Sequence record: NC_101837.1
DNA length: 64,000 bases
Origin: a phage
Direction: 5' to 3' (one strand)
Shown: piece by piece, positions 23,453 to 50,198 of the stretch
Position numbering within the stretch: position 1 is the first letter of the stretch
How the letters are laid out: the number at the start of each line of letters is the position of its first letter
The notes under the pieces: generated by a model
The model's database searches: none
The model's input: only the letters and a program-made list of their open reading frames with translations
Told to the model about the DNA's origin: nothing
Made by a program: the position numbers and the translations under genes

Positions 23453-23569
23453 ATGTCATCAGGCATTTATAAAATTTGCAAGTGTGGTTGTCGTTGCAAT
23501 CTTCGTTGGTGCAAGGCACTGGACGATTTTATTTGGCATTGCCCTGAATGTGATACGGAGTATCTATGA
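23453..23569 (+). CDS. small Cys-rich zinc-ribbon protein (38 aa)
   Basis: AAGGAGG RBS then MSSGIYKICKCGCRCN...CPECDTEYL; ATGA overlap with nrdG start. Confidence 0.45.
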   Translation: MSSGIYKICKCGCRCNLRWCKALDDFIWHCPECDTEYL

Positions 23570-24039
23570 ACATTGTCGGATACACAGAAGTATCTTACAC
23601 AGAAGGGCCAGGTATTAGAACTGCCTTGTGGGTATCTGGGTGCCCACACGCTTGCCCTGGTTGCTTTAATCAGGCATTTTGGTCAAAAGATAAGGGGAGG
23701 GAGTTCACTGAAGAAGATTTGCAAAAAATCTTGTCAGATCTGGATAACCCGTCTGTGTGCGGTATCTCTCTGCTGGGTGGAGAACCCTTAGCATACTATA
23801 ATGAGCCAGGTATTATTAGCCTGATGGAGAAAATTAAGGAAAAATTTGGTGACAAGAAAACTATTCTTGTATATACTGGGTTCACATTTGACCATATCTC
23901 TAGTGATGTTCTTAAACTGGCTGATATCATCATTGACGGTAAGTATGTAAAAGATTTACCAACCAAGAAACCGTTCCGAGGCAGTGATAACCAAAGAATG
24001 TTTAAAAAAGTATCAGGCGGTTGGGTTCAGGTAGACTAG
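23566..24039 (+). CDS. nrdG: anaerobic RNR activating protein (radical SAM)
   Basis: CPHACPGCFN cysteine cluster and GISLLGGEPL motif. Confidence 0.8.
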   Translation: MNIVGYTEVSYTEGPGIRTALWVSGCPHACPGCFNQAFWSKDKGREFTEEDLQKILSDLDNPSVCGISLLGGEPLAYYNEPGIISLMEKIKEKFGDKKTILVYTGFTFDHISSDVLKLADIIIDGKYVKDLPTKKPFRGSDNQRMFKKVSGGWVQVD

Positions 24040-24042
24040 TTG

Positions 24043-24072
24043 TTGACAAAGCTTTGTTTAGATAGGTATAAT
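24043..24072 (+). promoter_or_regulatory. sigma70-like promoter with palindrome at -35
   Basis: TTGACA, 18-bp spacer, TATAAT; 12-bp palindrome ACAAAGCTTTGT overlaps -35. Confidence 0.65.
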
Positions 24073-24103
24073 TATCGTAAAATGAAAGCAGAGGAGGTGC
24101 CAA

Positions 24104-24217
24104 ATGGCTAAAAAAGCCTTGAAGAAGGCGTACAAGAAAGAGATTGCGCTTGAGCTTAAGAAAAAACACAAGCGTGAAAAGAAACATCATGAAGATGAAG
24201 AGGGGGTGCAACAGTGA
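24104..24217 (+). CDS. small lysine-rich peptide (37 aa)
   Basis: GAGGAGG RBS, MAKKALKKAYKKEIALELKKKHKREKKHHEDEEGVQQ. Confidence 0.4.
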   Translation: MAKKALKKAYKKEIALELKKKHKREKKHHEDEEGVQQ

Positions 24218-24564
24218 CACAAGAACGTATCGATTTGGCTAATAAGTTTGTAGACCTCATTTTGCCACGGTTAGTTACTCAACATGCAGATGCTATTTCT
24301 ACTAATCTTGATGGCTTACGCCTAATGCTGAATCGCACAGATGACCCTCGTATTCGGGCTGATTTAGAAGCCTCTGCCAACAAACTGGAAAAGTTCTTGC
24401 AAGTAGACACGCAAGAAGCCTTGCACAAGATTATGGTGGAAGGTTTCTCTAAAGAATTTACCATTAAAGAGCTTAAGGAGCTGATCCACCAAGAAGAGAT
24501 GAATATCCGAGTTCAGGCTGTTGCAAGCAGCATGGAAGCGGCTATTGAAAAACTGTTGCAGTAA
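24214..24564 (+). CDS. hypothetical protein (116 aa)
   Basis: GTG start overlapping upstream stop. Confidence 0.45.
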   Translation: MTQERIDLANKFVDLILPRLVTQHADAISTNLDGLRLMLNRTDDPRIRADLEASANKLEKFLQVDTQEALHKIMVEGFSKEFTIKELKELIHQEEMNIRVQAVASSMEAAIEKLLQ

Positions 24565-24602
24565 AAGTACTTGGCACATCTCAATCTGAAAGGAGTCCCA
24601 AC

Positions 24603-25391
24603 ATGGGTCGAGCTAAAGAAACAAAACGCATGCGTGATGAAGCTAGAGAGGCTCGCAAATCTGATCGCCTGCGTAAGGCTGCTGAGAAATTTGCTGACGA
24701 AAGAGAGCACACCGCTCCAGCTCTCCGACCAATGAATAAGAAGCAGCAAAAGTATCTTGATTATCTAGGGTCACGTAAGATTATTATTGTAAACGGCGTG
24801 TTTGGATCCGGTAAGACATTTATGGCATCTGCATATGCAGGTGATCTTCTGCGTAAGAACGAGATTGATAAGATCATTGTTGCACGTCCTTACGTCCAGA
24901 CAGGAAAGACTTCAGGATTTAAACCCGGAAATGCAATGCAGAAACTGTGGCCCTATCTTCGAAGCATGATGGACACGATTTGTCGTCGTGTTGGCAAAGG
25001 TGCTTTTGCCGCAATGCTGGGAGACGGTCAGAACAGTCGTATCGAGATTTGTGAAGTTGAAAGCATTCGTGGTCGTAGTTTCGATGAGCGATGCTTTGTC
25101 CTGATTGACGAGGCACAGCAAACTAACCCTGAAGAAATGTTGTCAATTATCACAAGGATCTCTGATCAAGCCACCCTTGTAATTATGGGTGATAATAGCC
25201 AACGTGACATCCCTGGTAAATCTGGCCTTGCATGGGTGACGGATTTCTTTACTCGTCATCCAGATCCTGAGGTTGGAATGATCAGCTTTGATAGTCCAGA
25301 CGATGTCGTTCGTTCCGGGTTGGGTCGTCAAATCGCACTCAATCTTATTGAGGATCGTGCAAATCATATTTGGACCCCTGTTTCCGAGTAA
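24603..25391 (+). CDS. phoH: PhoH-like ATPase
   Basis: Walker A VNGVFGSGKTFMA, Walker B FVLIDEAQ. Confidence 0.8.
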   Translation: MGRAKETKRMRDEAREARKSDRLRKAAEKFADEREHTAPALRPMNKKQQKYLDYLGSRKIIIVNGVFGSGKTFMASAYAGDLLRKNEIDKIIVARPYVQTGKTSGFKPGNAMQKLWPYLRSMMDTICRRVGKGAFAAMLGDGQNSRIEICEVESIRGRSFDERCFVLIDEAQQTNPEEMLSIITRISDQATLVIMGDNSQRDIPGKSGLAWVTDFFTRHPDPEVGMISFDSPDDVVRSGLGRQIALNLIEDRANHIWTPVSE

Positions 25392-25396
25392 TACAG

Positions 25397-25420
25397 AAGG
25401 GTGGTTATTCCACCCTTAAA
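25397..25420 (+). terminator. putative terminator hairpin
   Basis: GGGTGG/CCACCC stem with TTATT loop after phoH stop. Confidence 0.5.
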
Positions 25421-25435
25421 TATCTAAAACAGTTG

Positions 25436-25464
25436 TTGACAAACAGGTAAGCTTTAGATATTAT
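25436..25464 (+). promoter_or_regulatory. sigma70-like promoter
   Basis: TTGACA, 17 bp, TATTAT. Confidence 0.6.
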
Positions 25465-25494
25465 TATCGGACAAGACAAGGAGAAGGAGATAGT

Positions 25495-25806
25495 ATGGCT
25501 ACAATACAAGAGAGACTGAATAAAATATACTGCCTGTTTGTCTATAACGGCGAGACAATTTTGGCAAATAAAGGATCCAAGAATGTGTGGATCAAGGACA
25601 GCGGTGGTAATATAATCAACTTAGCGTTGCTACGTGAGCGCCGACACAGATTCTTTATCGAGTCTCGAATTATTGAAAGCAGCACTTGCTACAGAACAGG
25701 CGATAAAGTAATTGTTGACAATGATACGTGGTATGTGGTAGATTGGCAATCATTGAGTTGTGATGCTTCTGACAATCGTAAGTACTCCATAGTGATTGCT
25801 AAATAA
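25495..25806 (+). CDS. hypothetical protein (103 aa)
   Basis: ORF after promoter with GGAGAAGGAGA RBS. Confidence 0.45.
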   Translation: MATIQERLNKIYCLFVYNGETILANKGSKNVWIKDSGGNIINLALLRERRHRFFIESRIIESSTCYRTGDKVIVDNDTWYVVDWQSLSCDASDNRKYSIVIAK

Positions 25807-25866
25807 AGGTAAATGTGAATCAGGTTTAAATAAATAGCTTTCAACTTCCAATATTAAGGATTTCTC

Positions 25867-26916
25867 ATGAATTTAACACCTCGCAGCACCATGGTACACG
25901 GCATGAAAGAAAAACAGAACGGTTTCGAACCTATGAGTAATAAAATGTTTGGTATGCCGGGCGGTATCATGGAAACATACAGCTACCCAACACCTGTTGT
26001 TGACCACGTTCTTTATATCGACGATTTGGAGGACCTGCAGGATCATATGTCTCGTCTGCAGACGATCCGTATGGCTCAGCCGGAAGAAAGCATTCGTGTG
26101 ATCATCAATAGCCCTGGTGGTTGCGTGCACATTGCAATGGCCTATCTGCAGGCATTCCGCGAGTCTCAGGCAAGCGTTGTTGCACATGCTGAAGGGATGT
26201 GCTGCTCTGCTGGAACAATCTTATGGCTTGGTTGCAAAGAACGTACTGTGGCTCCGGACACAGAATTTATGTTCCACTACTATCAAGGTGGCACTTATGG
26301 TAACGGTGTTAACATGAATACTCAGGTCAGCTACTGGAAAAAACGTTTTGAACACCTGATCGAAAAATACTACGGTGGGGTGCTGACAGAAGATGAGATC
26401 GCATCCATCACAGCTGGTGGCGAAGTGTGGTTGGACGGAGAAGAGTTGGCAGCACGCACTGGAGCTATTATTCTGGATGAAGGCAACATACAACGCATCC
26501 AGAACGGACAAAAACCGAAAAAGCTTCTGGCAAAAGGTGATGAAGAAGGCGTGTTAGGTGAAGCAGGTCTTCCGGAGATTCATCAGTGCACATCTTTAGA
26601 TGAGTTAGTTCATGCTGTTGAATCTGCAAAAGCGGGTGGTTCGAAAGGTGATGTTCACACTGTGTTCCTGAATCTGCAGATGGAAAGTGGCGAGACCGTC
26701 CGAATTGCCCTGGGTGAGATTACTTCAGAAGATCTGCAGAGATTCTCTGTCGTTGAACTTCAGGATATTCTGTCTCAATTGAAGACTACTCTGAACGGCG
26801 GTGAAGAGGTTAAGGTGAAAGATAAGACTCGCAAGCGTCTTGTGGACAATATTATTAAAACAGCAAAAGAGCTCAATGAAAAAATCCTTGGTGCAGGAAT
26901 TGTCGAAGAAGCTTAA
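25867..26916 (+). CDS. ClpP-family serine peptidase with C-terminal extension
   Basis: INSPGG, catalytic-Ser region AEGMCCSAGTILWLG, His region MFHYYQGGTYG; about 150-aa acidic extension. Confidence 0.65.
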   Translation: MNLTPRSTMVHGMKEKQNGFEPMSNKMFGMPGGIMETYSYPTPVVDHVLYIDDLEDLQDHMSRLQTIRMAQPEESIRVIINSPGGCVHIAMAYLQAFRESQASVVAHAEGMCCSAGTILWLGCKERTVAPDTEFMFHYYQGGTYGNGVNMNTQVSYWKKRFEHLIEKYYGGVLTEDEIASITAGGEVWLDGEELAARTGAIILDEGNIQRIQNGQKPKKLLAKGDEEGVLGEAGLPEIHQCTSLDELVHAVESAKAGGSKGDVHTVFLNLQMESGETVRIALGEITSEDLQRFSVVELQDILSQLKTTLNGGEEVKVKDKTRKRLVDNIIKTAKELNEKILGAGIVEEA

Positions 26917-26927
26917 ACATTAATTCT

Positions 26928-26952
26928 AAAGCCCTCTTCGGAGGGCTTTTAT
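26928..26952 (+). terminator. intrinsic terminator
   Basis: AAAGCCCTC-TTCG-GAGGGCTTT then T run. Confidence 0.6.
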
Positions 26953-26967
26953 GATCTGGAGATTTGC

Positions 26968-27501
26968 ATGACTTGTGCTAGAAAACCTGATGAACAACGT
27001 AACGCCTACGATGAGTATGTGACACCGGAATGGTGTGCAGAAGGGCTGTATGACCTTATTCCGTTCCCAGAAGACTGGACCTACTTAGAGCCTTGCAGGA
27101 ATAGTGCCTCAGGTGTGTTCTACTCCCGTATGCCGTTAGGATCTGCATGGGGAGAAATCCAAGAAGGTGTTGACTATCTGAATACAGAATACAACCATGT
27201 TGACTGTATTATCACCAACCCGCCGTACAGCCTGGCTCGTGAGTTTGTGAACAAGGCGTTGAAAGATGCCGACGTAGTTATTATGCTTTTGCGTCTTAAT
27301 TTTCTGGAAAGCAAAGCCAGATTTGAATGGTGGCTTGATAATGCACCTACTACTGTGATCACAATATCTAAGCGTCCATCATTTCAATCAAACGGCAGAA
27401 CTGACGGGCAAGCATATGCATATTTTGTGTGGGATAAGAAAAACCGTTTAGACTTGCCGCCGTTTATGTGGTTGGCACCCCCAGAGGTAGACCTGAAATG
27501 A
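26968..27501 (+). CDS. small DNA N6-adenine methyltransferase (phage Dam-like)
   Basis: IITNPPYS motif; 177 aa. Confidence 0.5.
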   Translation: MTCARKPDEQRNAYDEYVTPEWCAEGLYDLIPFPEDWTYLEPCRNSASGVFYSRMPLGSAWGEIQEGVDYLNTEYNHVDCIITNPPYSLAREFVNKALKDADVVIMLLRLNFLESKARFEWWLDNAPTTVITISKRPSFQSNGRTDGQAYAYFVWDKKNRLDLPPFMWLAPPEVDLK

Positions 27502-27782
27502 AAATGAGTGCTAAGGACAAATTACACCAGCTAGCGCTAAAACGCCCTGTAACGCTCCCTGACGAGCTTAACTCCATTTATGATGCGATTGTAGGGGAGA
27601 TACAAAATAAAGCGTTAGCAGGCTTTCTGGGGTGCGGATTTTCGATAAATCTACCCTCGCATCTCTCAGATTACTTCCCGCACATTGTTGGAGATTTAAG
27701 GGCAGGAGGTCTGCAGGTAGATGTTGTTGGCATCTCCCCAGAGAAAAATAATACGGTTGCCTACTTGACAGTAACCTGGTAG
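27498..27782 (+). CDS. hypothetical protein
   Basis: Internal ATG of track ORF 27468..27782. Confidence 0.4.
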   Translation: MKMSAKDKLHQLALKRPVTLPDELNSIYDAIVGEIQNKALAGFLGCGFSINLPSHLSDYFPHIVGDLRAGGLQVDVVGISPEKNNTVAYLTVTW

Positions 27783-27818
27783 TTGTGTATTGTTGTTTTC
27801 AACAAGAGGGGGTCATTT

Positions 27819-28058
27819 ATGTACAAGTCATTTTCAATCTACTCAAGACAGGCGAAACACTACACAGAGATCCTGATCACTCAGAAAAAATCTGTGGAAG
27901 GTGAGTGGGAATATCACCATAAAATGTTGCGTCCAGACTGGGTTTTTGATAGACTTATTGCTATGATCCCTCTCGGAGAAGTATACCCTCTGACAGCCCA
28001 TCGCGATGCTTGGGATTTAATTGATTACATAGATTCATTTAAGGAGCCTAGATTATGA
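27819..28058 (+). CDS. hypothetical protein
   Basis: ATG after GAGGGGG RBS. Confidence 0.4.
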   Translation: MYKSFSIYSRQAKHYTEILITQKKSVEGEWEYHHKMLRPDWVFDRLIAMIPLGEVYPLTAHRDAWDLIDYIDSFKEPRL

Positions 28059-28453
28059 AGATTGAGATTACTAAAGAAGGTAAGAAAGTGTCCGGCAACT
28101 ATGCAACAGTAATTCGGGATTTAATGTTTGAAGCCACCAAGATCGGTACATCTAAAGTTGGTCAAACTGTTAGTGTGAAAAGTAATATCTCCACAGGAGA
28201 GAAGGTATTCATTGTGGTCAAAGGGCAGGATCCCGTGGAAGGAACAGTGGGCCGAGGTGGCTACCTGTGCATTTCTGAAGAGCCGCGTATGTTAGTGGCT
28301 GACGCTACTATGGGTGGGAAACGTGTGTGCGAGGCGGATGAGGTAATGATTATCCAACCTGTTGATCCAGATGACCCAGCAACTTGGGTGGTAGGAAATG
28401 AAATCTTCTCTTTAGAAGAGTTATCCTTCCCAGCACCGCGCTCTGTTCAGTAA
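28055..28453 (+). CDS. hypothetical protein (132 aa)
   Basis: Tiled ORF. Confidence 0.45.
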   Translation: MKIEITKEGKKVSGNYATVIRDLMFEATKIGTSKVGQTVSVKSNISTGEKVFIVVKGQDPVEGTVGRGGYLCISEEPRMLVADATMGGKRVCEADEVMIIQPVDPDDPATWVVGNEIFSLEELSFPAPRSVQ

Positions 28454-28724: not shown

Positions 28725-28729
28725 CAGGT

Positions 28730-29284: not shown

Positions 29285-29512
29285 ATGAGTATAAATGTTG
29301 TGCTAATAGGTTACCTGGTAATGTCCGTTATAACAGCGGTATTCTTGACAGGTGTATGCATCGTGTCCAGACGAAGGGTGAAGTTTGATGATTTTATCAC
29401 CATCATCACTGCTGCACCTTTTTGGCCTGTTGTTATCTTCATCGTAATAATGTGCCTAGTTGATTACTACAAGAATATCAGGAAGGAGAGTAGGGATGGA
29501 GACCGCACCTAA
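29285..29512 (+). CDS. small membrane protein (2 predicted TM helices)
   Basis: Two hydrophobic segments, basic loop. Confidence 0.45.
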   Translation: MSINVVLIGYLVMSVITAVFLTGVCIVSRRRVKFDDFITIITAAPFWPVVIFIVIMCLVDYYKNIRKESRDGDRT

Positions 29513-29648
29513 AACTATCTATACTGTTCTTAAAGAGATTGCGTTCTACGCAGATCTTAGCCAGGCACCTTTATGGGAAAAGAGCATGTATTTAAAATGG
29601 TGCGTTAATTTAGGGAGACCTTCCAGTGTTTCAAGCCATGTTTATTGA
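29496..29648 (+). CDS. hypothetical protein
   Basis: ATG after AGGAAGGAG. Confidence 0.35.
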   Translation: METAPKTIYTVLKEIAFYADLSQAPLWEKSMYLKWCVNLGRPSSVSSHVY

Positions 29649-33246: not shown

Positions 33247-33275
33247 TTGACACAACGCTTCAGATTTAGTATCAT
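33247..33275 (+). promoter_or_regulatory. sigma70-like promoter followed by leader hairpin
   Basis: TTGACA, 17 bp, TATCAT; hairpin AGAGGG/CCCTCT at about 33285-33303. Confidence 0.55.
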
Positions 33276-33322: not shown

Positions 33323-33640
33323 ATGCAAATTGAAATCACTGGCAACGTAGAAATCACTGAAGGTATGGTGTCTTTCATTTCCCACAAAATGTCTAAGCTG
33401 GAGCGTTTGCATCCCTCTGCCAACTATGCACGTGTGAGTGTAAAAGTTGAAAATGATCACCAGGAAGTTATGGCGTTCATTTTTGACAATTCTGGAAAAG
33501 AAGTTATTGCCAAAGCTAAAGGCAGTGATGCTTACGAGGCAACTGACCGTATGGTAGATGTTGCAGCACGTCAACTGGCTAAATGCGGTGGAAAGAGAGG
33601 TAAGGGGAAAGGCAAAGTAAAGATTGACTTTAGAGAATGA
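33323..33640 (+). CDS. ribosome hibernation promoting factor / RaiA (YfiA) homolog
   Basis: MQIEITGNVEITEGM...KLERL...VSVKVEN...AKAKGSDAYEATDRMVDVAARQL is collinear with bacterial HPF/RaiA. Confidence 0.7.
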   Translation: MQIEITGNVEITEGMVSFISHKMSKLERLHPSANYARVSVKVENDHQEVMAFIFDNSGKEVIAKAKGSDAYEATDRMVDVAARQLAKCGGKRGKGKGKVKIDFRE

Positions 33641-33649
33641 GGTGCTACA

Positions 33650-33751
33650 ATGGGTGTGATCAAGAAATTAGTCCCAAATGTAGAGATTGCATGCTTTGAA
33701 ATTATGTTTGCAATCGCAGTTGTAGTTAATGTGTTAGGTTACGGCTATTAA
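33650..33751 (+). CDS. small hydrophobic peptide (33 aa)
   Basis: GAGGTG RBS, MGVIKKLVPNVEIACFEIMFAIAVVVNVLGYGY. Confidence 0.3.
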   Translation: MGVIKKLVPNVEIACFEIMFAIAVVVNVLGYGY

Positions 33752-36151: not shown

Positions 36152-36438
36152 TGAAAGATCTGGTTAAGATTAAGATTAAAGATACCAATGGAGAACTCAG
36201 CCATTTTGGAATTAATGATGGTGACGAGCTGATCGCACACCTGCCTACCAAGGAAGTTGTAAGCAAAGCAGTTGCCGGAGAAGAAGATGCAATGCAGGCT
36301 GCAGGTGTGGATGAAAACTATGTAGCTATGTGCATGTGCCGAGATCAGGTTGTTCTGTATAAAGCGTATCGACCAAACGGAGCCACGGAGTGGCTTGTAT
36401 TCCGACCAGAAGGATATGAAATCTTAGAGGCACTATGA
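36151..36438 (+). CDS. small acidic protein
   Basis: ATGA coupling. Confidence 0.45.
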   Translation: MKDLVKIKIKDTNGELSHFGINDGDELIAHLPTKEVVSKAVAGEEDAMQAAGVDENYVAMCMCRDQVVLYKAYRPNGATEWLVFRPEGYEILEAL

Positions 36439-36527
36439 TAAATCTTGCCAAGGTTGCAACGGCACTATTAATTATTTGCTGGTCAGTAACCTTAACACTG
36501 TGTCTTGTATTTCAGTAAGGTGCTTAT

Positions 36528-36791: not shown

Positions 36792-36946
36792 TAGTATAGT
36801 GACTAACAAGAGGTGAGGAATGACTGATTTTACTGAAGCTTTAATGATGGCCTTGTCTGTTTTAGCGCTATCGGTGTGTTTTGGGGCGTTATTCACATCT
36901 CTGGTTAAAGTTTTACATACAGTATTATTACCCAAGGAGCGCAGTA

Positions 36947-37198
36947 ATGACGAAGATTGACTTAAATGCTGGAGACCATGTTGTTGTCAAATGCATCGGA
37001 GATTATCTTGGATTCACAATCGGCAATACTTACGAGGCGGTAGTGGCGAAGGTTTACCATGATAAAGTCCTCAGTCTTGTATTTGACTGCGATGATGATG
37101 GGGATGACCGATACGTCTGTGAGGTGCTGGCACGAGACGATAGTGAAGACCAGAAATTCCTGGTTATTGAACTGAACGGTATTTTTGTAGAACGTTAA
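36947..37198 (+). CDS. hypothetical protein
   Basis: Internal ATG of track ORF 36881..37198 after AAGGAG. Confidence 0.4.
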   Translation: MTKIDLNAGDHVVVKCIGDYLGFTIGNTYEAVVAKVYHDKVLSLVFDCDDDGDDRYVCEVLARDDSEDQKFLVIELNGIFVER

Positions 37199-38246: not shown

Positions 38247-38276
38247 AGGACGCTCTGTGGCGTCCTTTTCTTTATC
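38247..38276 (+). terminator. intrinsic terminator
   Basis: AGGACGC-TCTGTG-GCGTCCT then TTTTCTTT. Confidence 0.65.
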
Positions 38277-38435
38277 TGGTGCACGATTGCATACCTTGGA
38301 CAGATAATCTCGTTACAGAGCGTTTAAGAGCTTTCTACAAACAAGTCTCTCTTTCGAGCGTAGCGAGAACGCACGTCCGTTTTGACCCAAATCACCATAC
38401 GCTCGGATTTTAACCAAACCCTCGCGGCGTTTCTG

Positions 38436-38464
38436 TTGACACATTACCGCTCTCGTGATAGTAT
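38436..38464 (+). promoter_or_regulatory. sigma70-like promoter
   Basis: TTGACA, 17 bp, TAGTAT. Confidence 0.55.
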
Positions 38465-38484
38465 CCACACATCGTTTGGAGAAT

Positions 38485-38586
38485 ATGGGATACACAATGA
38501 GAACATTGTCTGAAGTTTTAGTGGTGATCCTGATGATTATTACGTCCATAGCGGCTGTTGCCGGAATACTCACAGGTGGAACATGA
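38485..38586 (+). CDS. small hydrophobic peptide (33 aa)
   Basis: MGYTMRTLSEVLVVILMIITSIAAVAGILTGGT; stop overlaps next ATG (ATGA). Confidence 0.4.
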   Translation: MGYTMRTLSEVLVVILMIITSIAAVAGILTGGT

Positions 38587-38795
38587 TCAACACACATGCA
38601 TCTGAAGAGACATCCAAAGGAGTGACCATATGTCCATTGGCTGAGCCAGTGAAAGGGGAAAACTTCGATTCTGAAGATTCTCCATCTTCGCTCCAGGTAG
38701 ATCCTGAGGCTGATGACTTGACGTGGGGAGACATCGTAGATATCTGGTTCTCTATTATGCCTGAGCACGAAGAGTTCAGAGGTGGTAGACTATGA
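38583..38795 (+). CDS. hypothetical acidic protein (70 aa)
   Basis: Coupled to upstream peptide. Confidence 0.4.
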   Translation: MINTHASEETSKGVTICPLAEPVKGENFDSEDSPSSLQVDPEADDLTWGDIVDIWFSIMPEHEEFRGGRL

Positions 38796-39288: not shown

Positions 39289-40663
39289 TAAGTTCTTCTC
39301 TTTTCTTTTACCGAGTAATTCGGGTTTTCTGTTCTCTTCGGTTTGAAGGGGTATGGAGATACACCTGAGTGAACAGGGTGAACAACCGAACCTTTGGCTA
39401 TGGCATTAGCATGGCGAAGCGGACGGGTGACGAAAGAGGGGCCGGAGGACACCAGTCACTGCCATATGATATATGGGTGATAACCTGAAGAGTCTGAATA
39501 AGTGTTTAAGTACCAGTCAGAGGAAAAGGTGAATGGTAGCCGAAGGGGGATGGGGGGTTTCTTGTATCTTTAATTTGTATATTATGTATACACTTGTAAA
39601 CCAATCTCATCTGAATCTGTTTACCACACAAAGCGGATAGAGACAAATATCACCTATTAAACTTGAATTATTTATAGAAAATACCACAACACCAATTAAG
39701 TCTTTGATTTTAAACACAAATCCTACAGATATTCAACCTCCATATTTAACATACTCGTAACATATTCCATACTCTACCTGTCTGATCAATTTACCCAACT
39801 ACATCCCCATATTTTCCCTGTCTGTACTACCCCATCCCCGCCGGGAGTCCCGTCATATCTGGCTTTCCAGCAAATATCACACCCACAAATATCATTGCCT
39901 GAAGAGGGTTTCATCCCATAATACATGCCTTACATGAAGAGCGCTTCATACACCACGTAAATTTTTTAATTGACCTCCCCGCCGCCGGAGAGGTTGGCTT
40001 TTCCCCACACAGACCTGAAGAGTCAGCCAGAAATATCTGAACAGGTCCAGTTCTGCCTTGTCATGAGCCGTAGCGACTGGAGTGCTGCCAGGCGGACGGA
40101 ATGGGAATACTTCTCATTCTTATAATAATTCTCAAATATCGAGGCAGTGAGGCAAATTAATAGGTGAGGCCGTTCACACAGTGGCACAACATTTGCAATC
40201 TATTTTGTGGGGGTGAATGAGAATACCTATCATTGTGAGAACTGTTATCATTACGGGCAATTTAACATAATACCCATTATGCGCACCACTGGCGATCCAT
40301 ACAGGGATTGATAACATGAGTTACAGTTTACGCATATAACAATCATATTTCTTACTATTTGTGTGGGATATAGTTAGCAGCCGATAGATTAGATATTGAC
40401 CTGTGGACTTCCAACCGTCTAGACGTCTAAACGCCCACACAACAAGGATTATACATACATTACTGAATGTAAACAGGGCCGCAAAAATGCTACCATACCA
40501 GTTTGTAAATTTTTCATGCAGCACTTGACAAAGAGAGGAAAAACTTGTCTGACATGCTGGGCATACTTCACACCTTAAACATACTCAACACTGGATACAA
40601 TAACAATTGTTACTATTGCATGCCTCACTGTTCACGTATAGACTATTTGCTCAAAAATGATAA

Positions 40664-40955
40664 GCCATGCCATTCGTTTGCATGATAACAATAACGATCA
40701 ACAACAATAAAGACTGAAATGATAACGTTGTTGATTTGACTGACTAACAATTAACAGGCTAATAATCTATGACATAATATAAAAGCAGGGCAACTATTAG
40801 CAGATCTATAGTTGCCTTGCTTGTTATGTCATGATTAACTAAATACAAGGCAACTATGATCTGATTAATAGTTTGCAGACAAACTATCACGGGGGTGATG
40901 GTTACTGCTTTTATATTATGTCGCGACTCCGTCGCGCCATGCCATTCGTTTGCAT
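40664..40955. repeat. composite repeat: 20-bp direct repeats flanking 18-bp inverted repeats and iteron-like motifs
   Basis: GCCATGCCATTCGTTTGCAT at about 40664 and 40936; GACATAATATAAAAGCAG (40771) and its reverse complement (40905); AAGGCAACTAT-like motif in both orientations between them. Confidence 0.5.
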
Positions 40956-41616
40956 AGTTGCCTTATTGTTACAGATAAAATAATTGTATTGTTAATTATT
41001 TCTTATCTTTCTATTAGTCATCTAATGATTCCAGTTAGTATAGTAACGTACAGTAAACATTAGACGACTAAAGATTTCTCTGATTATGATAACTTGCCGT
41101 GACAATTTCAGACTGTTTACGAAAAATGTTGACACCTGAGCTGATTTATGTTATGCAATTTAAACGAATAATTATTTTATGCAGGTATTGACTATTCTGT
41201 TATCCTATGGTCGGAATAAATACTTAGCAGGCTATAGAATGGTGAGCGTACGTAAATTCTGAGATCTGTCGGCTATAGTTATACTCGATTTTTCACGTAG
41301 AACACGCTTTTTGGTTTGTGTAAGTGTATGACTTATAAAGATTTTTAGTTGTTGACAAGATATTGAAGATGTGCATCAGGTTAAATTTTGTGCAATAGCT
41401 GCATTACGTGCAATTTTGGAAGGAAAACGGGTAAAAATAGCACCGCTACCACACAATGAAAGGTTATGCAATAGTTATTTTACATGTATATTTGTACAGT
41501 GTGTGGGATTGATGGCTCGTCAATTATTCCACTTGCCAGGTAGGGCCGTTTATGGTAGGGAGGAAGAGCAGACAAAAAGAAAGGGACCTAAGCCCCTTGA
41601 TAATTCAGTTAAAAAA

Positions 41617-43195: not shown

Positions 43196-43330
43196 TTAAA
43201 ACAAGGTGCCAACCGTTTCCAATAGATCACTGACTACCAGGACAATACCGATCAGCACATACCTAACCATAAGGAGAAAGAGCGCCAGCGATCCCGCCAC
43301 AATCCCCAAGGTGATGATTATCTTTCTCAT
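43196..43330 (-). CDS. small hydrophobic peptide (44 aa)
   Basis: ATG 2 nt after upstream stop; MRKIIITLGIVAGSLALFLLMV... Confidence 0.3.
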   Translation of the reverse strand: MRKIIITLGIVAGSLALFLLMVRYVLIGIVLVVSDLLETVGTLF

Positions 43331-43332: not shown

Positions 43333-43617
43333 TTAACGGTTTACGTAAGTTTTCCCGTTTACGGTGATGGGCAGATCCTCCAGGTCTGGATCTTCCTTAA
43401 GGTCGCGAGCAAGTTCACCGCACCGGACACCCTCGAATCCGTAGTACTCTGTCGTGCCGTCCTTAAAAGTTTTAGCGGCAAGGCATAAGCGATAAGTAAC
43501 CCCGATTCGATTGACGGCATGAATATCCGTTAGATTAACCTCTTTTGCCAGCTCTTTAGCCATTACAGGCGCATTAAGTCCAACAACCAGGGCAACCACT
43601 GCGATCATCTTTTTCAT
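43333..43617 (-). CDS. secreted/periplasmic small protein
   Basis: Signal peptide MKKMIAVVALVVGLNAPVMA. Confidence 0.5.
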   Translation of the reverse strand: MKKMIAVVALVVGLNAPVMAKELAKEVNLTDIHAVNRIGVTYRLCLAAKTFKDGTTEYYGFEGVRCGELARDLKEDPDLEDLPITVNGKTYVNR

Positions 43618-43924: not shown

Positions 43925-44379
43925 TTGCCAACCTCACCCGATACCGTTGGAAGACAAGATCACATTAGCCATGGTTGCAATCAGGCCAATACCCAGGGCA
44001 ATAACCAGGATCACCGCATCAATTAATTTCTGTTTCATTTTGTTTTCCTCTTCTTGTTCCAGGTGGCGGACCATTCCACCGCCTTATGTATTATGCTTTG
44101 TAAGATGGTTGTTTGTTTTCAAACTATTTTAACGATAATCATCGTACGCTTTATTAACCTGGCGAATATAACATTCAAAAGCCAGATCAATAGATTTATA
44201 TTCACGGATATACTCACCATAGGAAACCACATACATTTCTATAGCTTCCTCATATGCGAGGAGAATAGAATCCAAGCCTACGATCTCAGTCTTTGCAATA
44301 ATAGCCATGATTTTTATCCTCTTTGTGGTTGGTGGGGCTTGCCCCTTTGATTTATATACTACAGTCTTATATGGTCATG

Positions 44380-45511: not shown

Positions 45512-45528
45512 AAAATCACCTGCTGAAA

Positions 45529-45849
45529 TTAGTTTGAGAAAACATCGTTCACAATAGCGATCACAATGCCGCCCACCTTGTCACGGTCAACAATGCACAA
45601 ATCACCATAGATCATGTGGTAGTCTGGATGATCTTTCACGGAATAATCAATGAGTGTTTTCTTGTCATCCAGCTTACTAACTTCCATTCTCATAACGATA
45701 TGAGAATCATCAAAGGCATTATTCCGAAAAGTCATAACCTGACCGCCAGGGCACCCGGTGATTTCCACCTCCACGCCGTCTACGATCTGACCATCAAAGA
45801 AATAAAGATTATTAGCCTGGATAAACATGATCATTACTCCTTTTTGCAC
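45529..45849 (-). CDS. hypothetical protein
   Basis: GTG start, AGGAG RBS. Confidence 0.45.
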   Translation of the reverse strand: MQKGVMIMFIQANNLYFFDGQIVDGVEVEITGCPGGQVMTFRNNAFDDSHIVMRMEVSKLDDKKTLIDYSVKDHPDYHMIYGDLCIVDRDKVGGIVIAIVNDVFSN

Positions 45850-45872
45850 TGATTATTTTAACAGGGTTTAAA

Positions 45873-45916
45873 TTTACTTTATTGATGGCCCTGGAGTCAA
45901 GGCCATCTAAAAATAA
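45873..45916 (-). repeat. 44-bp repeated intergenic hairpin element, copy A
   Basis: TTTACTTTATTGATGGCCCTGGAGTCAAGGCCATCTAAAAATAA; GATGGCC/GGCCATC stem; 1 mismatch vs copies B and C. Confidence 0.6.
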
Positions 45917-45919
45917 ATT

Positions 45920-46120
45920 TTACAGGCCTACAATCTCTTTAATTCGTTTTACTGCTGCCTCAGCGCCTTGAGGGTAAAAATTATGGTAACCAATCACGCG
46001 AGTGATACTAATCGCCGTTTGATGATCTTCATAATCACCTTTAAAGATTTCTTGACCGTCAATCAGCACGGCAATTTTTTCTTCTTTTTTGAAGTTAATA
46101 ACGCGGATATTGTTGCTCAT
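45920..46120 (-). CDS. hypothetical protein (66 aa)
   Basis: Tiled ORF ending 4 nt before repeat element. Confidence 0.45.
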   Translation of the reverse strand: MSNNIRVINFKKEEKIAVLIDGQEIFKGDYEDHQTAISITRVIGYHNFYPQGAEAAVKRIKEIVGL

Positions 46121-46400
46121 TTTGTTTCTCCTTTTGGAACTTTGTCTATGCGGTGGGGAGTGTCTCCCCGTTGATTGTTATTATCCATATTCTGGATCGG
46201 ATTGCAACACTCAGGGAGAAAAAAATTTGAAAAGTTAGGCCCCAGGGATCGGGGCCGTTATCAATTACTTACAGCGATAAAATACATCCCTACGCCTAAC
46301 AATATTTCAAGGGCGATGATCTCAAGCCATACCATAACACGGCGCGCCTTATCGGTGCGGGGCTTATCCTTGGGTGTCATCGTCTCCCCCTTTCCTCCTG

Positions 46401-46622
46401 TTAGCAGTGACGTGGTTTGCAATGGCCCCCAGGAGTATTATCACCACGCACATTACAAGAAAAATTATCTCTGTCGTTGTTCGATCCATTGTTATAAAAT
46501 TCCTTAAGATCAGGCCTGAAAATAAAGCTTTCGTTATTGAATCCATCCCGCCAGGCGGCTGGCTTCAAATCTTCACTAAAGGGGTTAATTAACGTGGCAT
46601 TATTTAAACGGCTGGTCCACAT
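46401..46622 (-). CDS. hypothetical Cys-containing protein
   Basis: ATG 46622 with GAGAGGAA RBS; overlaps small hydrophobic ORFs in other frames. Confidence 0.35.
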   Translation of the reverse strand: MWTSRLNNATLINPFSEDLKPAAWRDGFNNESFIFRPDLKEFYNNGSNNDRDNFSCNVRGDNTPGGHCKPRHC

Positions 46623-46971
46623 ATTTTCTATTCCTCTCAAATAGGCGATCCGCCTCAGTTAAACAAATCTCATGGGCGTGATCTCTGGTTTTAGCTTCAT
46701 CGAAAACCTGTTGTGCAAGGCTGCAACGTAGGGAGACTGGAAGATCGCTGTAGTAGGCGTTGACAAATGTTTGAGCGTCGTACAGGTCTGAAAATACTTT
46801 ACCCTTTCTATTATTCCCCTTGTCAACAATTGCAAGGATAACAAGTACAATAGTTGCAACCACCCCCAGGAAAATAGATATAATAAACCATAAAAAAGCG
46901 GATCTACCCATCTTGCCAGCGATCCAGGCGTTGAACAAGGCAACTACTACAGCCAAAATAATAAATTCCAT
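46600..46971 (-). CDS. membrane protein (N-terminal TM helices)
   Basis: ATG 46971 with AAGAGG RBS inside track ORF 46600..47106. Confidence 0.45.
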   Translation of the reverse strand: MEFIILAVVVALFNAWIAGKMGRSAFLWFIISIFLGVVATIVLVILAIVDKGNNRKGKVFSDLYDAQTFVNAYYSDLPVSLRCSLAQQVFDEAKTRDHAHEICLTEADRLFERNRKYVDQPFK

Positions 46972-47035
46972 TCTATGTACCTCTTTTGCAGTTCTGTTTA
47001 ACAATAAGGCGGCAAATATGCCGCCTGTTACCTGA

Positions 47036-47416
47036 TTAAAAATTATCGCCGTAAATCTTTCCGCTTTCTGCCCACACCACCACGCGGGGCATGTTATCCC
47101 ATACATCTTGTTTCAGATTTAACGCGTGCAATTCTTCGGTGGTGCTCATACCGGGCACGGGCTGATTGTATACTGCAAAACGACCGCCTGCATAATCATA
47201 GGCCAGAGTTAAATCACACTGGATCATCTTTTTGATCATGGCGTTAAGCATAGCGTTAGCCGCGTACTGGTCACGTTTTAAAGGCAACTCTTTGATTAGT
47301 TTGCGATAGTTTTCGATATGGTCGCACACTGTTTCACGTGGAAGATCTTTCATATCTTCACGGAATGTAACCAGGTTAAACATAACGGTGTCAATAGCTT
47401 TAGTAGTGTTTTTCAT
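47036..47416 (-). CDS. hypothetical protein (126 aa)
   Basis: Tiled ORF. Confidence 0.45.
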   Translation of the reverse strand: MKNTTKAIDTVMFNLVTFREDMKDLPRETVCDHIENYRKLIKELPLKRDQYAANAMLNAMIKKMIQCDLTLAYDYAGGRFAVYNQPVPGMSTTEELHALNLKQDVWDNMPRVVVWAESGKIYGDNF

Positions 47417-47507
47417 GATGTTTTCCTCTTTGTTTTGTGGGGGGGCAAGTCATCTCGCCCCTTGAGTTTTTAATATAGCAGGTTTTTAGATTATTGCAAC
47501 ACTTTAT

Positions 47508-48131
47508 TTATGAAAAACTCATCTCCCCATATTCATCCACATCAAACCGCCAATCATTGGCTTCAATAAGGCCGATCAGGTTTTCGGTAGTAAACTGTTC
47601 AAGATAGGCCTCCTCCAGGTCTACGTAAACCTTGCGGGATAGCTCCCGTACCGTCTCGGTGATCAGCTCTTCCAGCTCTTCAACTTTGTCCTCTTGCTTG
47701 GTGGTCAGGTCTAGCCAATTAGTATCGATGCACCCTCCTATTGTGTTTTCGTGATGATAATGGCTAAACGGGATACGTTCAACACTGGCTGATAACTCGC
47801 CATCGTGCATTGTGCCGAACAAGTGACGAATTGATCGGAACTTGGTCAGGGCCTTTACTTTACGCAAGAATTTTTCTAAATCCACGTTTTCAGCACTGAT
47901 TGACGCGCCATCGCCTTGACACCAAAAGCCGGACCAACGTATTTCGGTATCTTCAAGGCCGTACTCTGGAAAGACATATTCTTTATAGTGTTCAATTACA
48001 CTTTCTGCAAAAAAATTATCCCCGCTGTGTTCTTCTCTTTCGCGGACCATTTCAATAGCTTTTTCTTTTTGTTCGTCGGTCAGCACGTCGAAAGATAAAT
48101 TGTAACCTGTGGTAATGTTAACGGTGGTCAT
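47508..48131 (-). CDS. hypothetical acidic protein (207 aa)
   Basis: AGGAG RBS; leader hairpin upstream. Confidence 0.5.
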   Translation of the reverse strand: MTTVNITTGYNLSFDVLTDEQKEKAIEMVREREEHSGDNFFAESVIEHYKEYVFPEYGLEDTEIRWSGFWCQGDGASISAENVDLEKFLRKVKALTKFRSIRHLFGTMHDGELSASVERIPFSHYHHENTIGGCIDTNWLDLTTKQEDKVEELEELITETVRELSRKVYVDLEEAYLEQFTTENLIGLIEANDWRFDVDEYGEMSFS

Positions 48132-48188
48132 GATATTTTCTCCTATTTTCTTTGTTAGTGGCGGGAAGTTTTCCCGCCTGTGTGTTTA

Positions 48189-48216
48189 AGTATACTTATC
48201 GAGATTTACTTGTCAA
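48189..48216 (-). promoter_or_regulatory. sigma70-like promoter (leftward)
   Basis: Reverse strand TTGACA, 16 bp, TATACT; followed by hairpin GGCGGGA/TCCCGCC (48160-48178), RBS and ATG 48131. Confidence 0.5.
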
Positions 48217-48466
48217 CACTATTTTTTAAATTATTGTGGCGTAAAATGTTCAAGATCTCTTCAACGTCATCAACACGGCGGCAATTTTTAAACGCTACCA
48301 GTTGCCCCAGTATTTTAATCACTGGACGGCCTTGCCAGTGCCCTTGGAGAAAGCGAGCTTTAACTTTATCGGTGGAACTATCACGCCACCAAATGGCCTT
48401 GTTGTTGCAGTAGTAAAAATTATTCAGGACAACATCAACTTTATCAAAATTTTTTAATTTACGCAT
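48206..48466 (-). CDS. hypothetical protein
   Basis: AAGGAG RBS. Confidence 0.45.
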   Translation of the reverse strand: MRKLKNFDKVDVVLNNFYYCNNKAIWWRDSSTDKVKARFLQGHWQGRPVIKILGQLVAFKNCRRVDDVEEILNILRHNNLKNSVDK

Positions 48467-48498
48467 GGCGTTTACTCCTTTCTCTCTTTGATGTGGTT

Positions 48499-48526
48499 AG
48501 TATAGCTAACCTGTTTAAGATGTCAA
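48499..48526 (-). promoter_or_regulatory. sigma70-like promoter (leftward)
   Basis: Reverse strand TTGACA, 16 bp, TATACT. Confidence 0.5.
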
Positions 48527-48707
48527 GCTTTAAATAAAATCACTGTCAATGATATTTTTAACGCCATAAAACGGCCCTAAGCGATGTTTTCAGGTTAAAG
48601 GGGGGCGATTGCATAGGTGGGGCCTTTTTGGCGCTTACAGGGCCAACCGGGGGCGCTATTCGTAGGATAGAAATAAAAAGCCCCGCACAATGGCGGGGCG
48701 TTGGTTG

Positions 48708-48905
48708 TTATTTGCCTTTGTGGCGGTATCGTTCCGCCTGTCGTTCACGTTCCAAAAGCAGGCCCGGTAATTTGCGATCATAATGATTCCGCCAGATCTT
48801 CCCAAATCTTTTTGGCTTATTCAGTTTATTGTTGCGCTGGCGGCGTTCCGGCAGCTCTTCGGAAGCATGAGATCGCTTTACAATTTTCTCGAAATTAATT
48901 TTCAT
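48708..48905 (-). CDS. small highly basic protein
   Basis: MKINFEKIVKRSHASEELPERRQRNNKLNKPKRFGKIWRNHYDRK...; ATGA overlap. Confidence 0.4.
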   Translation of the reverse strand: MKINFEKIVKRSHASEELPERRQRNNKLNKPKRFGKIWRNHYDRKLPGLLLERERQAERYRHKGK

Positions 48906-49248
48906 ATATTCCCCCCTTGCTAACTTCAATATTGGCCTGAATAGCCCGGATACGGCGCTTTATAACTTCCTGATCTGTGTGGTCGTATCCCCAAAAGTCT
49001 ACAATTTTTGCGCCCCCCGCCTCCAGGCGGTATAGTGTTTCCTGCATTTTGTAAGCCGGGATCGGTCGCGGTGTTACTTGGTCACCTTCTTTATTTTTAT
49101 ACTTTATAATATAATCTTCGTTATCGTTGAATGCCCAAAATGGATATTCTGCAAGGGCGGTACTTCCTCTTTCCTTTTTATCCTGGATCTTATTTACAAT
49201 TAAAGCCGTAGCAATAGCGCCAATAATAAAACTTGCCCCGCTGATCAT
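48895..49248 (-). CDS. membrane-anchored protein
   Basis: N-terminal TM MISGASFIIGAIATALIV. Confidence 0.45.
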   Translation of the reverse strand: MISGASFIIGAIATALIVNKIQDKKERGSTALAEYPFWAFNDNEDYIIKYKNKEGDQVTPRPIPAYKMQETLYRLEAGGAKIVDFWGYDHTDQEVIKRRIRAIQANIEVSKGGIYEN

Positions 49249-49322
49249 GTACTTTCTCCTTTCATGGTGTTAATAAATTATCTTTATAGATGGCCCTGCA
49301 ACCAGGACCACCGAAAAAATAA

Positions 49323-49568
49323 CTATTTCACAATGCCTACAAAACAGATCCCGCCTTCACCTATATAAGCAATATCGGTCACTTTATAACTTGTCAAGAT
49401 CTGCTTATTTAGTTCATTAATAAAATCGGTCATTGCGTTGGTGTAGTTGTCTTCCGTGTCTAAGGCATAATCCCAGGTGTACACCTTTTTACGTCCGAAG
49501 CCTTTTACCATGATACGGGCGCTTTTGGTGTTGGTAGGGGCATAATATTTGGTGATTAGTGCTGCCAT
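49323..49568 (-). CDS. hypothetical protein
   Basis: Tiled ORF. Confidence 0.45.
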   Translation of the reverse strand: MAALITKYYAPTNTKSARIMVKGFGRKKVYTWDYALDTEDNYTNAMTDFINELNKQILTSYKVTDIAYIGEGGICFVGIVK

Positions 49569-49611
49569 GGTTTTAACTCCTATGCATTAGTTCAGTGTTA
49601 ACAGTATAAAG

Positions 49612-49655
49612 TTTACTTTATTGATGGCCCTGGTGTCAAGGCCATCTAAAAATAA
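49612..49655 (-). repeat. 44-bp repeated intergenic hairpin element, copy B
   Basis: TTTACTTTATTGATGGCCCTGGTGTCAAGGCCATCTAAAAATAA, identical to copy C. Confidence 0.6.
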
Positions 49656-49657
49656 GC

Positions 49658-49999
49658 TTACTCGTTTTCTTCCAGCTCCGCAAGCTCTTCTTTTGCTTCT
49701 TCTAACTCTGTCTGTAATTCCTGGTATTCTTCATCGTCCTCAATATCCAGGCTGTCGATGTAGTCGCTAAATCCGCAGCGGTAAGCGATAGGATCTAGCT
49801 CCTTGAGGATACGCGACGGAAGAAAAGAAATGTTTCCGATCATAATTTCGCCGTAGATCTCGTCTAACCATTCATCATAGTTTTCGTCGTACTTGTCCTC
49901 GTCGATTTCAAAGTTATCGATCTTATTCTCAAGGTCTGCGATCTGTTTTTTCAGTTCAGCGATCTGCATAGCTTTTTCTGAGGCGGTCATAGTAGTCAT
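49658..49999 (-). CDS. hypothetical acidic coiled-coil protein
   Basis: AAGGAG RBS; leader hairpin. Confidence 0.45.
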   Translation of the reverse strand: MTTMTASEKAMQIAELKKQIADLENKIDNFEIDEDKYDENYDEWLDEIYGEIMIGNISFLPSRILKELDPIAYRCGFSDYIDSLDIEDDEEYQELQTELEEAKEELAELEENE

Positions 50000-50050
50000 G
50001 GTGTTTTTCTCCTTTTGTGTGTTCTGGGAAGTTTTCCCGTTTATGTGCTT

Positions 50051-50078
50051 ATTATATCGATTTAAGTTAGCTTGTCAA
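50051..50078 (-). promoter_or_regulatory. sigma70-like promoter (leftward)
   Basis: Reverse strand TTGACA, 16 bp, TATAAT; hairpin GGGAA-GTTT-TCCC downstream then RBS. Confidence 0.6.
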
Positions 50079-50198
50079 TTAAAAGTTTAAGAAAAATTTT
50101 GCGACACCGTTGGCGCTACCCATCAACATTTGCGCCAGGATGTACCCAATGATGCAAACGATGATGGTTACCTTTGTGTGCTGGCGTGTAGTGCTCAT
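50079..50198 (-). CDS. small hydrophobic peptide (39 aa)
   Basis: GGAGG RBS 7 nt before ATG; MSTTRQHTKVTIIVCIIGYILAQMLMGSANGVAKFFLNF. Confidence 0.4.
   Translation of the reverse strand: MSTTRQHTKVTIIVCIIGYILAQMLMGSANGVAKFFLNF

Follow-up and report, generated by a model that had tools for sequence, protein, structure and literature searches.

Small inner-membrane proteins, e.g., AcrZ, MgrB, SgrT and MgtS, have regulatory roles in bacteria. Small proteins of phages are systematically under-annotated, and several are now known to inhibit host machinery potently and specifically. The genome paper of the myophage rV5 reports "88 mainly small ORFs" (open reading frames) in one region (PMC3606486), whose counterpart in the record NC_101837.1 is considered here. 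In this 64,000-nucleotide stretch of phage DNA (the window), seven micro-ORFs are likely to be genuine, translated small genes of an rV5-like myophage, part of a block of about 90 that flanks a strand-switch region, and accessory roles are proposed for them.

The window shares 95-98% nucleotide identity (over the three 10-kb pieces compared) with more than 100 published genomes of Vequintavirus (rV5-like) E. coli myophages, phiWec189, WalterGehring, JohannBauhin, Murica and rV5 among them, and is by this measure rV5-like coliphage DNA. The small-ORF block corresponds to rV5 genes about 124-204 and its flanks are collinear with those of the relatives, again at 95-98% identity; because the rV5 paper places its mainly small ORFs there, the micro-ORFs belong to a known small-gene block. 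The + strand carries the genes as far as about 39.3 kb and the - strand those beyond about 41.4 kb; the stretch in between has no ORFs and is where the GC skew flips. Homologous regions were compared in rV5, Murica, FV3, EPFV3, PDX, phiWec189, WalterGehring, two unannotated rV5-like records and IMG/VR contigs, with a 137-kb IMG/VR relative serving as the divergent comparison genome; the IMG/VR scans with single proteins comprise two loci each.

Coding Evidence for the Micro-ORFs

All seven micro-ORFs, named here by their first coordinate, are present exactly where an earlier note on this DNA had placed them, each with an ATG start; one of them, 51499-51639, falls outside that note's own range of 23453-50198. 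The strands, absent from the note, are + for 23453, 24104, 33650 and 38485 and - for 43196, 50079 and 51499. Strong ribosome-binding sites, which had been claimed for the whole set, are found in front of five ORFs (23453, 24104, 33650, 50079 and 51499), with a Shine-Dalgarno sequence (SD) of AGGAGG or GAGGT 6-7 nucleotides (nt) before the ATG, but not in front of 43196, which lacks an SD, or 38485, where GGAG stands 3 nt from the ATG. The coupled stops described for the set are real for three ORFs (23453, 24104 and 38485). The five SD-bearing candidates all lie within short sense-strand intergenic gaps. For comparison with chance, only four ATG-started ORFs of 30-59 amino acids (aa) that follow an SD of 5 nt or more occur in about 62 kb of the antisense strand; when ORFs of all lengths are counted, SD-plus-ATG sites number 108 on the sense strand and 12 on the antisense strand.

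Each micro-ORF sits between the same neighbours in rV5, Murica, FV3, EPFV3 and WalterGehring. Start, stop and length are kept in 6-10 genomes, with exceptions for 43196 and 51499, and the proposed sense frame is the only one free of stops in all relatives. Variable sites pooled over the set fall 43/32/81 on the three codon positions, an excess at position 3 (P=1.3e-6) that is significant singly for 23453, 24104, 38485 and 50079. Among close relatives, the ratio of nonsynonymous to synonymous differences (pN/pS) is 0.04 for 24104, 0.12 for 23453, 0.21 for both 38485 and 50079, 0.45 for 51499, 0.51 for 33650 and 0.71 for 43196. In the divergent 137-kb relative, all seven are intact and retain SD or coupling, and the corresponding values are 0.05 (24104), 0.15 (23453), 0.22 (33650), 0.30 (50079), 0.32 (51499), 0.39 (38485) and 0.45 (43196). 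From these comparisons we conclude that all seven are real protein-coding genes whose amino-acid sequences are subject to purifying selection, a conclusion best supported for 23453, 24104, 38497 (the likelier start of 38485, see below) and 50079.

The ORFs had also been called unannotated, which is true only of the 60-aa track of the earlier note: all seven match dedicated PHROG families (E 1e-16 to 2e-31), and each has a hypothetical coding sequence (CDS) in at least one relative. The matches run over the full length of six ORFs, that of 38485 from residue 5, and the match of 51499 is partial because of a deletion. The micro-ORFs are thus already catalogued as hypothetical proteins in close relatives (Table 1) and the finding is largely ordinary. 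Public records are nevertheless inconsistent, with individual ORFs omitted or overlapping frames called in several: the Murica record has a terminator called inside the Cys-rich ORF, and the rV5 record has ORF114 and an extended ORF162 in other frames. Selection at the protein level justifies retaining the micro-ORFs in annotations and corrects such records, i.e., the alternative frames of rV5 and the Murica terminator over a CDS.

Table 1. Micro-ORFs, promoter-like sites and homologues of the Cys-rich gene (window coordinates unless a contig is named; TM, transmembrane)
Feature	Position	Strand	Start signal and context	Family and records in relatives
38-aa Cys-rich, zinc-ribbon-like gene	23453..23569	+	SD AAGGAGGT at 23440-23447; stop overlaps nrdG start (ATGA)	phrog_20137, E 2e-30; EPFV3 ORF150; hypothetical proteins in A51.2, LL12, Phage 206
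37-aa Lys-rich gene	24104..24217	+	SD AGGAGG; stop overlaps GTG of 116-aa gene preceding phoH (GTGA)	phrog_7670, E 2e-20; rV5 ORF118, Murica gp173, FV3_00110, EPFV3 ORF148
33-aa single-TM gene	33650..33751	+	SD GAGGT; 9 nt 3' of HPF/RaiA homologue	phrog_15151, E 4e-26; rV5 ORF145, Murica gp146, FV3_00137, EPFV3 ORF122
29-aa single-TM gene	38497..38586	+	Second ATG of 38485 ORF; stop overlaps ATG of 70-aa acidic-protein gene (ATGA)	phrog_34195; Murica gp132, EPFV3 ORF108, both 90 nt
44-aa very hydrophobic gene	43196..43330	-	No SD; start 2 nt after stop of 94-aa gene (43333-43617)	phrog_16005, E 7e-24; rV5 ORF170, FV3_00157, bas51_0128; identical protein in phage JeffSchatz
39-aa single-TM gene	50079..50198	-	SD AAGGAGG	phrog_16391, E 2e-31; rV5 ORF193, FV3_00177, bas51_0109
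46-aa hydrophilic gene	51499..51639	-	SD GAGGAGGT	phrog_21957, partial; FV3_00181, EPFV3 ORF78, bas51_0105, at 177 nt
27-aa single-TM micro-ORF (candidate)	36435..36518	+	MINLAKVATALLIICWSVTLTLCLVFQ; ATGA overlap with upstream gene; SD GAGG
34-aa single-TM micro-ORF	43934..44038	-		phrog_14631, E 2e-22; bas51_0125, Murica gp121, FV3_00160
39-aa single-TM micro-ORF	46261..46380	-		phrog_13629, E 7e-32; bas51_0119, Murica gp113, rV5 ORF181
Further conserved micro-ORFs	29496-29648; 36820-36960	+		Each with its own PHROG and CDS in relatives
12/12 consensus sigma-70 promoter	24043..24072	+	Directly 5' of Lys-rich ORF	Annotated as P118 in rV5
11/12 promoter	33247-33275	+	Ahead of HPF/RaiA homologue
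Sigma-70-like promoter TTGACA-17-TAGTAT with TG	38436..38464	+	After terminator 38247-38266; 38485/38497 is first ORF of the unit
10/12 promoter-like site	50260-50231	-	Precedes 50079 gene
12/12 promoter	50078-50051	-	Begins directly after 50079 stop
11/12 promoter with TG	51495-51468	-	After 51499 stop
Cys-rich homologues on contigs	L017-L019 5001-5111; L012 4001-4165; L016 4001-4126		In divergent rV5-like contigs, some with Lys/Glu-rich N-terminal extension (54 aa)

The Cys-Rich Micro-Protein

The 23453 product has seven Cys in 38 aa, is intact in 10/10 relatives and is found by tblastn in 121 Vequintavirus records. Exhaustive and profile searches recover true homologues of 36-54 aa that share a W-x-C-P-x-C knuckle, and across 15 cluster representatives all seven Cys are invariant. 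They include two knuckles at the spacing of about 15-25 residues used to recognise a zinc ribbon: C9-x-C11, which is CxC in Vequintavirus and CxxC in the homologues on contigs L012 and L016, and C30-P-x-C33, which is invariant in the 15 representatives; Cys 13, 15 and 20 are invariant beyond the knuckles. An AlphaFold2 model (predicted local distance difference test score 68-70) is beta-rich, with strands at 14-20, 25-30 and 35-37. Its best PDB fold matches are zinc ribbons, with template-modelling scores of 0.65-0.73 and a root-mean-square deviation of 1.2-1.6 A over 33-34 residues, at Foldseek E values of at least 0.5, which are not significant. Sequence-profile searches of the PDB and Pfam returned no match.

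Several relationships were tried and rejected. In the rubredoxin family (PF00301), a domain of about 50 aa carries CxxCG...CPxCG with a spacing of about 30 residues; the peptide has no Pfam match at E<=1, and only its W-x-C-P-x-C-[D] knuckle resembles rubredoxin. Nor is the ORF a detached fragment of NrdD, given that NrdD has its own C-terminal Cys4 site and glycyl-radical motif. Three candidates from the representative search (P0009, P0012 and P0014) are long repeat proteins whose matches reflect composition only.

The family extends well beyond close relatives of the window. In divergent contigs of 133-140 kb, the gene again lies between nrdD and nrdG, and its core is 80-82% identical to that of the window, as compared with 49-55% for NrdG, 49% for PhoH and 32% for the 116-aa neighbour. 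The pN/pS of the gene ranges over 0.07-0.55; in the divergent contigs, pS reaches 0.9 at a pN of about 0.07-0.1. In three podophage contigs of 44-45 kb (L017-L019), which are 86-93% identical to SP6/K1E-like Vectrevirus coliphages, a member of the family at 61-82% identity lies between a DUF3310 gene and the DNA ligase gene, to which it is coupled by 4 nt; no cultured Vectrevirus with the gene was found in the phage collection searched.

These contexts bear on the thought that the protein belongs to the anaerobic ribonucleotide reductase (RNR) system as an accessory subunit, perhaps supplying metal or electrons to the radical-SAM activase NrdG. Its location between nrdD and nrdG, coupled to nrdG, in the window, in most Vequintavirus and in the divergent contigs speaks for such a subunit, as does the likeness of the W-x-C-P-x-C-D knuckle to rubredoxin-type metal sites. 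Yet the arrangement is loosened by insertions on one side or the other: two other ORFs separate the gene from nrdG in rV5, and a T5orf172 endonuclease-like gene separates it from nrdD in the window. A distant phage nrdD-nrdG locus (L005) has no Cys-rich ORF, so that co-occurrence is not obligate, and the podophage contigs contain neither nrdD nor nrdG in the 10 kb shown. Pfam gives no rubredoxin match, NrdD brings its own Cys4 site, and no link between NrdG and rubredoxin was found in the literature. The label "ribonucleotide reductase", which the ORF carries in V18 and which PHROG repeats, is unsupported because it traces to GenBank product names. A role as an RNR subunit is thus unlikely.

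Because the same family also stands beside DNA ligase in podophage contigs, the Cys-rich gene is better described as a mobile, strongly constrained micro-gene than as an obligate RNR subunit. In both phage groups its coupled neighbours are genes of nucleotide or DNA metabolism (nrdG or DNA ligase); the protein could act with NrdG- or ligase-type enzymes as a redox or metal partner, or it could inhibit a conserved host factor. A bolder and quite tentative idea is that phrog_20137 represents an uncharacterised family of metal-binding phage micro-proteins that move horizontally and have a specific molecular target. Unusually strong conservation and transfer between unrelated coliphage families make this micro-protein the one lead worth an experiment.

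The surrounding locus has peculiarities of its own. A 330-aa ORF with T5orf172 and treble-clef zinc-finger domains (22412-23404, +) lies between nrdD and the Cys-rich ORF; it is absent from Murica, FV3 and EPFV3, in which homology resumes at 23441, and looks like a free-standing homing-endonuclease-like insertion. Whereas nrdD is contiguous in Murica, a precise insertion of 257 nt (20854-21110, +) divides it into ORFs 19994-20857 and 21142-22374 in the window. The last base is T in the upstream exon and G in the insert, and a 471-nt search gives a sub-threshold Rfam match to group I introns (RF00028; 29.3 bits against a gathering cut-off of 50, E 1.2e-5). The insertion is probably an ORF-less group I intron.

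Membrane, Lys-Rich and Hydrophilic Micro-Proteins

The peptide classes assigned in the earlier note (zinc-ribbon-like, Lys-rich and single-TM) agree with composition and Kyte-Doolittle hydropathy: four peptides are single-TM, one is Lys-rich, one is the zinc-ribbon-like protein described above and one (51499) is soluble and hydrophilic. A single hydrophobic stretch of about 19 residues in a protein of less than 50 aa is found in 33650, 38485, 43196 and 50079, with maximal 19-residue hydropathies of 2.27, 2.95, 2.79 and 2.08, respectively.

The Lys-rich 24104 peptide has 13 K/R in 37 aa, with a basic N-terminal part and an acidic tail. The ORF is intact in 10/10 relatives, 12 of its 15 variable sites are at codon position 3, and a 41-aa Lys-rich homologue occupies the same position in the divergent contigs L012 and L016. 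33650, intact in 9/9 relatives, directly follows the gene for a homologue of the ribosome hibernation factor HPF/RaiA (Ribosomal_S30AE; 33323-33640, +).

For 38485, the start is most likely to be the second ATG, giving the 29-aa gene 38497-38586 rather than a 33-aa product. rV5, EPFV3 and FV3 have mutations in the GGAG before the first ATG, residues 1-4 are variable (MGYT, MEYT, MECT and MKYA) and the most divergent relative lacks the first ATG; these three traits make 38497 the likelier start. The second ATG is preceded by GGAG or GAGGAG 6-8 nt upstream in most relatives, and by GAGGAG in the most divergent one; phrog_34195, Murica gp132 and EPFV3 ORF108 all correspond to the 29-aa product.

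Eight homologues of 43196 were found, all in Vequintavirus. The ORF is intact in 8/9 relatives (the exception is Murica), and its start context, TAAccATG, is kept in relatives and reads TAGatATG in the divergent one. The C-terminus is mosaic within close relatives; length and hydrophobic profile are kept at 47% identity in the divergent relative. 50079 is intact in 9/9 relatives and found in 112 Vequintavirus records by tblastn. The 51499 protein has 58 aa in relatives, and the window copy has an in-frame 36-nt (12-codon) deletion; the ORF is frameshifted in the rV5 record.

Less Likely Alternatives: Translation-Coupling Devices, Chance Frames and Overlapping Genes

Some observations pull against the view that all seven are small genes with protein-level functions. 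The test for 33650 has low power, with only 7 variable sites among close relatives, and a promoter-like site at 33624-33651 would start transcription inside this ORF, part of which may double as a 5' leader. 43196 reaches a pN/pS of 0.71 among close relatives, and in Murica both 43196 and 51499 are replaced by other sequence, which makes them dispensable accessory genes. The literature yielded no ribosome profiling, transcriptome or non-virion proteome for any Vequintavirus, rV5 proteomics being of virions only. Searches of Pfam, NCBIfam and PDB sequences with all the peptides found no homology to functionally characterised proteins, so all functional statements are inferred from composition and context; sub-threshold matches to LPAM_1, YqzM, DUF7396, zf-LITAF and holin_phiLC3 fall far under curated cut-offs and were rejected.

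If the ORFs were translated only as coupling devices or leaders for the downstream gene, the peptides themselves would be irrelevant. Three of the seven indeed overlap the start of the next gene by 4 nt, 43196 is itself reinitiated, the last codons of the Cys-rich ORF (ACG GAG TAT CTA) hold the GGAG that serves as the nrdG SD, and in the podophage contigs this ORF is 4-nt-coupled to a different gene. However, a leader peptide is free to vary, whereas pN/pS is 0.04-0.45 here and 0.04-0.21 for the coupled ORFs, with Cys and TM residues invariant. The seven Cys persist while the synonymous divergence of the Cys-rich gene is near saturation, the TM hydrophobicity survives heavy divergence, and what follows 50079 and 51499 is a promoter in each case and no coupled gene. 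A purely coupling function is therefore quite unlikely.

The ORFs are very short, and chance ORFs of such a size are frequent, 323 of 30 aa or more being present in 30 kb; frames that are open by chance in regulatory DNA between genes, i.e., in promoter and terminator spacers, and conserved through constraint on DNA or RNA might be mistaken for genes. Such an origin would suit the strong promoters that abut 50079 and 51499, the Murica record with its terminator and no CDS in the Cys-rich ORF, and 33650, which has too few substitutions to test among close relatives. It is very unlikely in view of the position-3 excess and low pN/pS, the conserved SD motifs and the deletion in 51499, whose 36 nt keep the frame. 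Apart from the Murica replacement and the frameshift in the rV5 record, no frameshifts or stops occur in 6-10 relatives, and the other sense frames do have stops. No Rfam family was found over any micro-ORF, and the Murica "terminator" is a weak hairpin of 7 pairs, 3 of them GC.

That the real genes are instead overlapping frames, i.e., rV5 ORF114 at the Cys-rich ORF, the extended ORF162 at 38485-38586 or an antisense ORF at 38313-38768, is extremely unlikely: the rV5 reference record does annotate ORF114 and a 101-aa ORF162 in those frames, and the antisense frame shows no stop over 102-158 codons in any of the 8 genomes, but in several relatives, and in the window too, stops interrupt both the +1 frame at the Cys-rich ORF and the stretch that would extend the 70-aa gene upstream, the phase of substitutions fits the micro-ORF frames, and the antisense ORF has no SD, starts with GTG, is Arg/Cys-rich and non-protein-like, is annotated in no relative and opposes the local GC skew and gene orientation.

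Expression and Proposed Roles

The earlier note had assumed an early region, and this agrees with the promoters: many near-consensus sigma-70 promoters fit early genes transcribed by the host RNA polymerase (RNAP). Between 41 and 53 kb, 46 sigma-70-like sites are found as compared with 26.7+/-5.2 expected. The promoters that follow the 50079 and 51499 stops begin 0-3 nt downstream, and the order of stop, then TTGACA, is kept in the divergent relative. As judged by these consensus matches, early transcription by host RNAP fits.

With the micro-ORFs taken as genuine genes, the following course can be proposed. Host sigma-70 RNAP would transcribe them from the near-consensus promoters of the region. 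Five would be translated from their own strong SD and 43196 by termination-reinitiation, its ATG being 2 nt past the upstream stop; through the ATGA/GTGA overlaps, ribosomes would be passed on from 23453 to nrdG, from 24104 to the 116-aa gene and from 38497 to the 70-aa gene. The predicted products are four single-pass inner-membrane micro-proteins (33650, 38497, 43196 and 50079), a helical peptide that is basic and Lys-rich and ends in an acidic tail (24104), a 7-Cys zinc-ribbon-like metal-binding peptide (23453) and a small soluble peptide (51499). They may serve as accessory factors in host takeover: the membrane peptides would most likely insert into the inner membrane and bind or perturb host envelope proteins, and the Cys-rich peptide would most likely be a mobile metal-binding adaptor on a conserved target. 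By analogy with bacterial small membrane regulators and with phage early proteins, it is plausible that the TM peptides modulate host membrane proteins, as the earlier note suggested.

Further Small ORFs and Other Features

The list of seven is incomplete: micro-ORFs at 29496, 36435, 36820, 43934 and 46261 can be added (Table 1). Of these, 36435-36518 is the only truly unannotated candidate found. It is intact at 84 nt in 8/8 relatives, with variable sites of 3/3/7 by codon position, and has a diverged hydrophobic counterpart in the IMG/VR relative; no PHROG matches it, and the records of Murica, rV5, FV3 and EPFV3 lack a CDS for it, rV5 calling other, overlapping ORFs there. The antisense ORF at 38313-38768 (-; 151 aa) is judged spurious, yet its openness is unexplained as coincidence.

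The ORF-free strand-switch region spans about 39300-41400 of the window, has no tRNA or Rfam matches and contains direct and inverted repeats clustered at 40660-40970, among them an exact repeat of 20 nt whose copies are 272 nt apart and perfect inverted arms of 18 nt. The linear sequences of several GenBank records have their ends within this region, which may serve as an origin or in packaging or as the termini. Some 20 records under the name "Campylobacter phage" that are flagged UNVERIFIED (MG0656xx; A140, C15 and others) share 96% identity with this rV5-like coliphage and are placed in Vequintavirus; their host labels are probably wrong.

Comparison With Known Small Proteins

Small regulatory proteins of the AcrZ/MgrB/SgrT/MgtS type supply the mechanism that the earlier note proposed for the membrane peptides. 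Shared with them are a length of less than 50 aa, a single hydrophobic helix and a free-standing or operon-embedded ORF with its own SD; the likeness is one of size and hydrophobicity only, with no sequence similarity.

Host-takeover proteins of coliphages, e.g., T7 Gp0.4, Gp2 and Gp5.7 and lambda Kil, and other phage small proteins (PMC11323111) are likewise small, early, non-essential accessory genes in dense, promoter-rich regions that are often mosaic and horizontally exchanged. The micro-proteins differ in that no homology was found, and most of the characterised takeover proteins are soluble and bind FtsZ, RNAP or nucleoid proteins, unlike TM peptides.

The Cys-rich peptide compares with zinc ribbons such as those of Rpb9, ZifS (TTHA0897), the N-terminal ribbon of a NUDIX protein (3cng) and the C-terminal ribbons of topoisomerase I, the likeness consisting of two Cys knuckles (CxC/CxxC and CPxC) and a predicted three-stranded sheet. 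Unlike stand-alone zinc ribbons, it has seven invariant Cys, not four, which leaves three unaccounted for.

The closest counterparts are the hypothetical small proteins of Vequintavirus, as in rV5, Murica and the BASEL phage WalterGehring (bas51). Since the genes are already catalogued there, the scientific gain is modest, and so are the leads, which come down to the Cys-rich micro-protein and the unannotated 27-aa ORF. These counterparts are orthologues at 80-100% aa identity, with the same position, SD and coupling, from which the window copy of 51499 differs by its in-frame loss of 12 codons.

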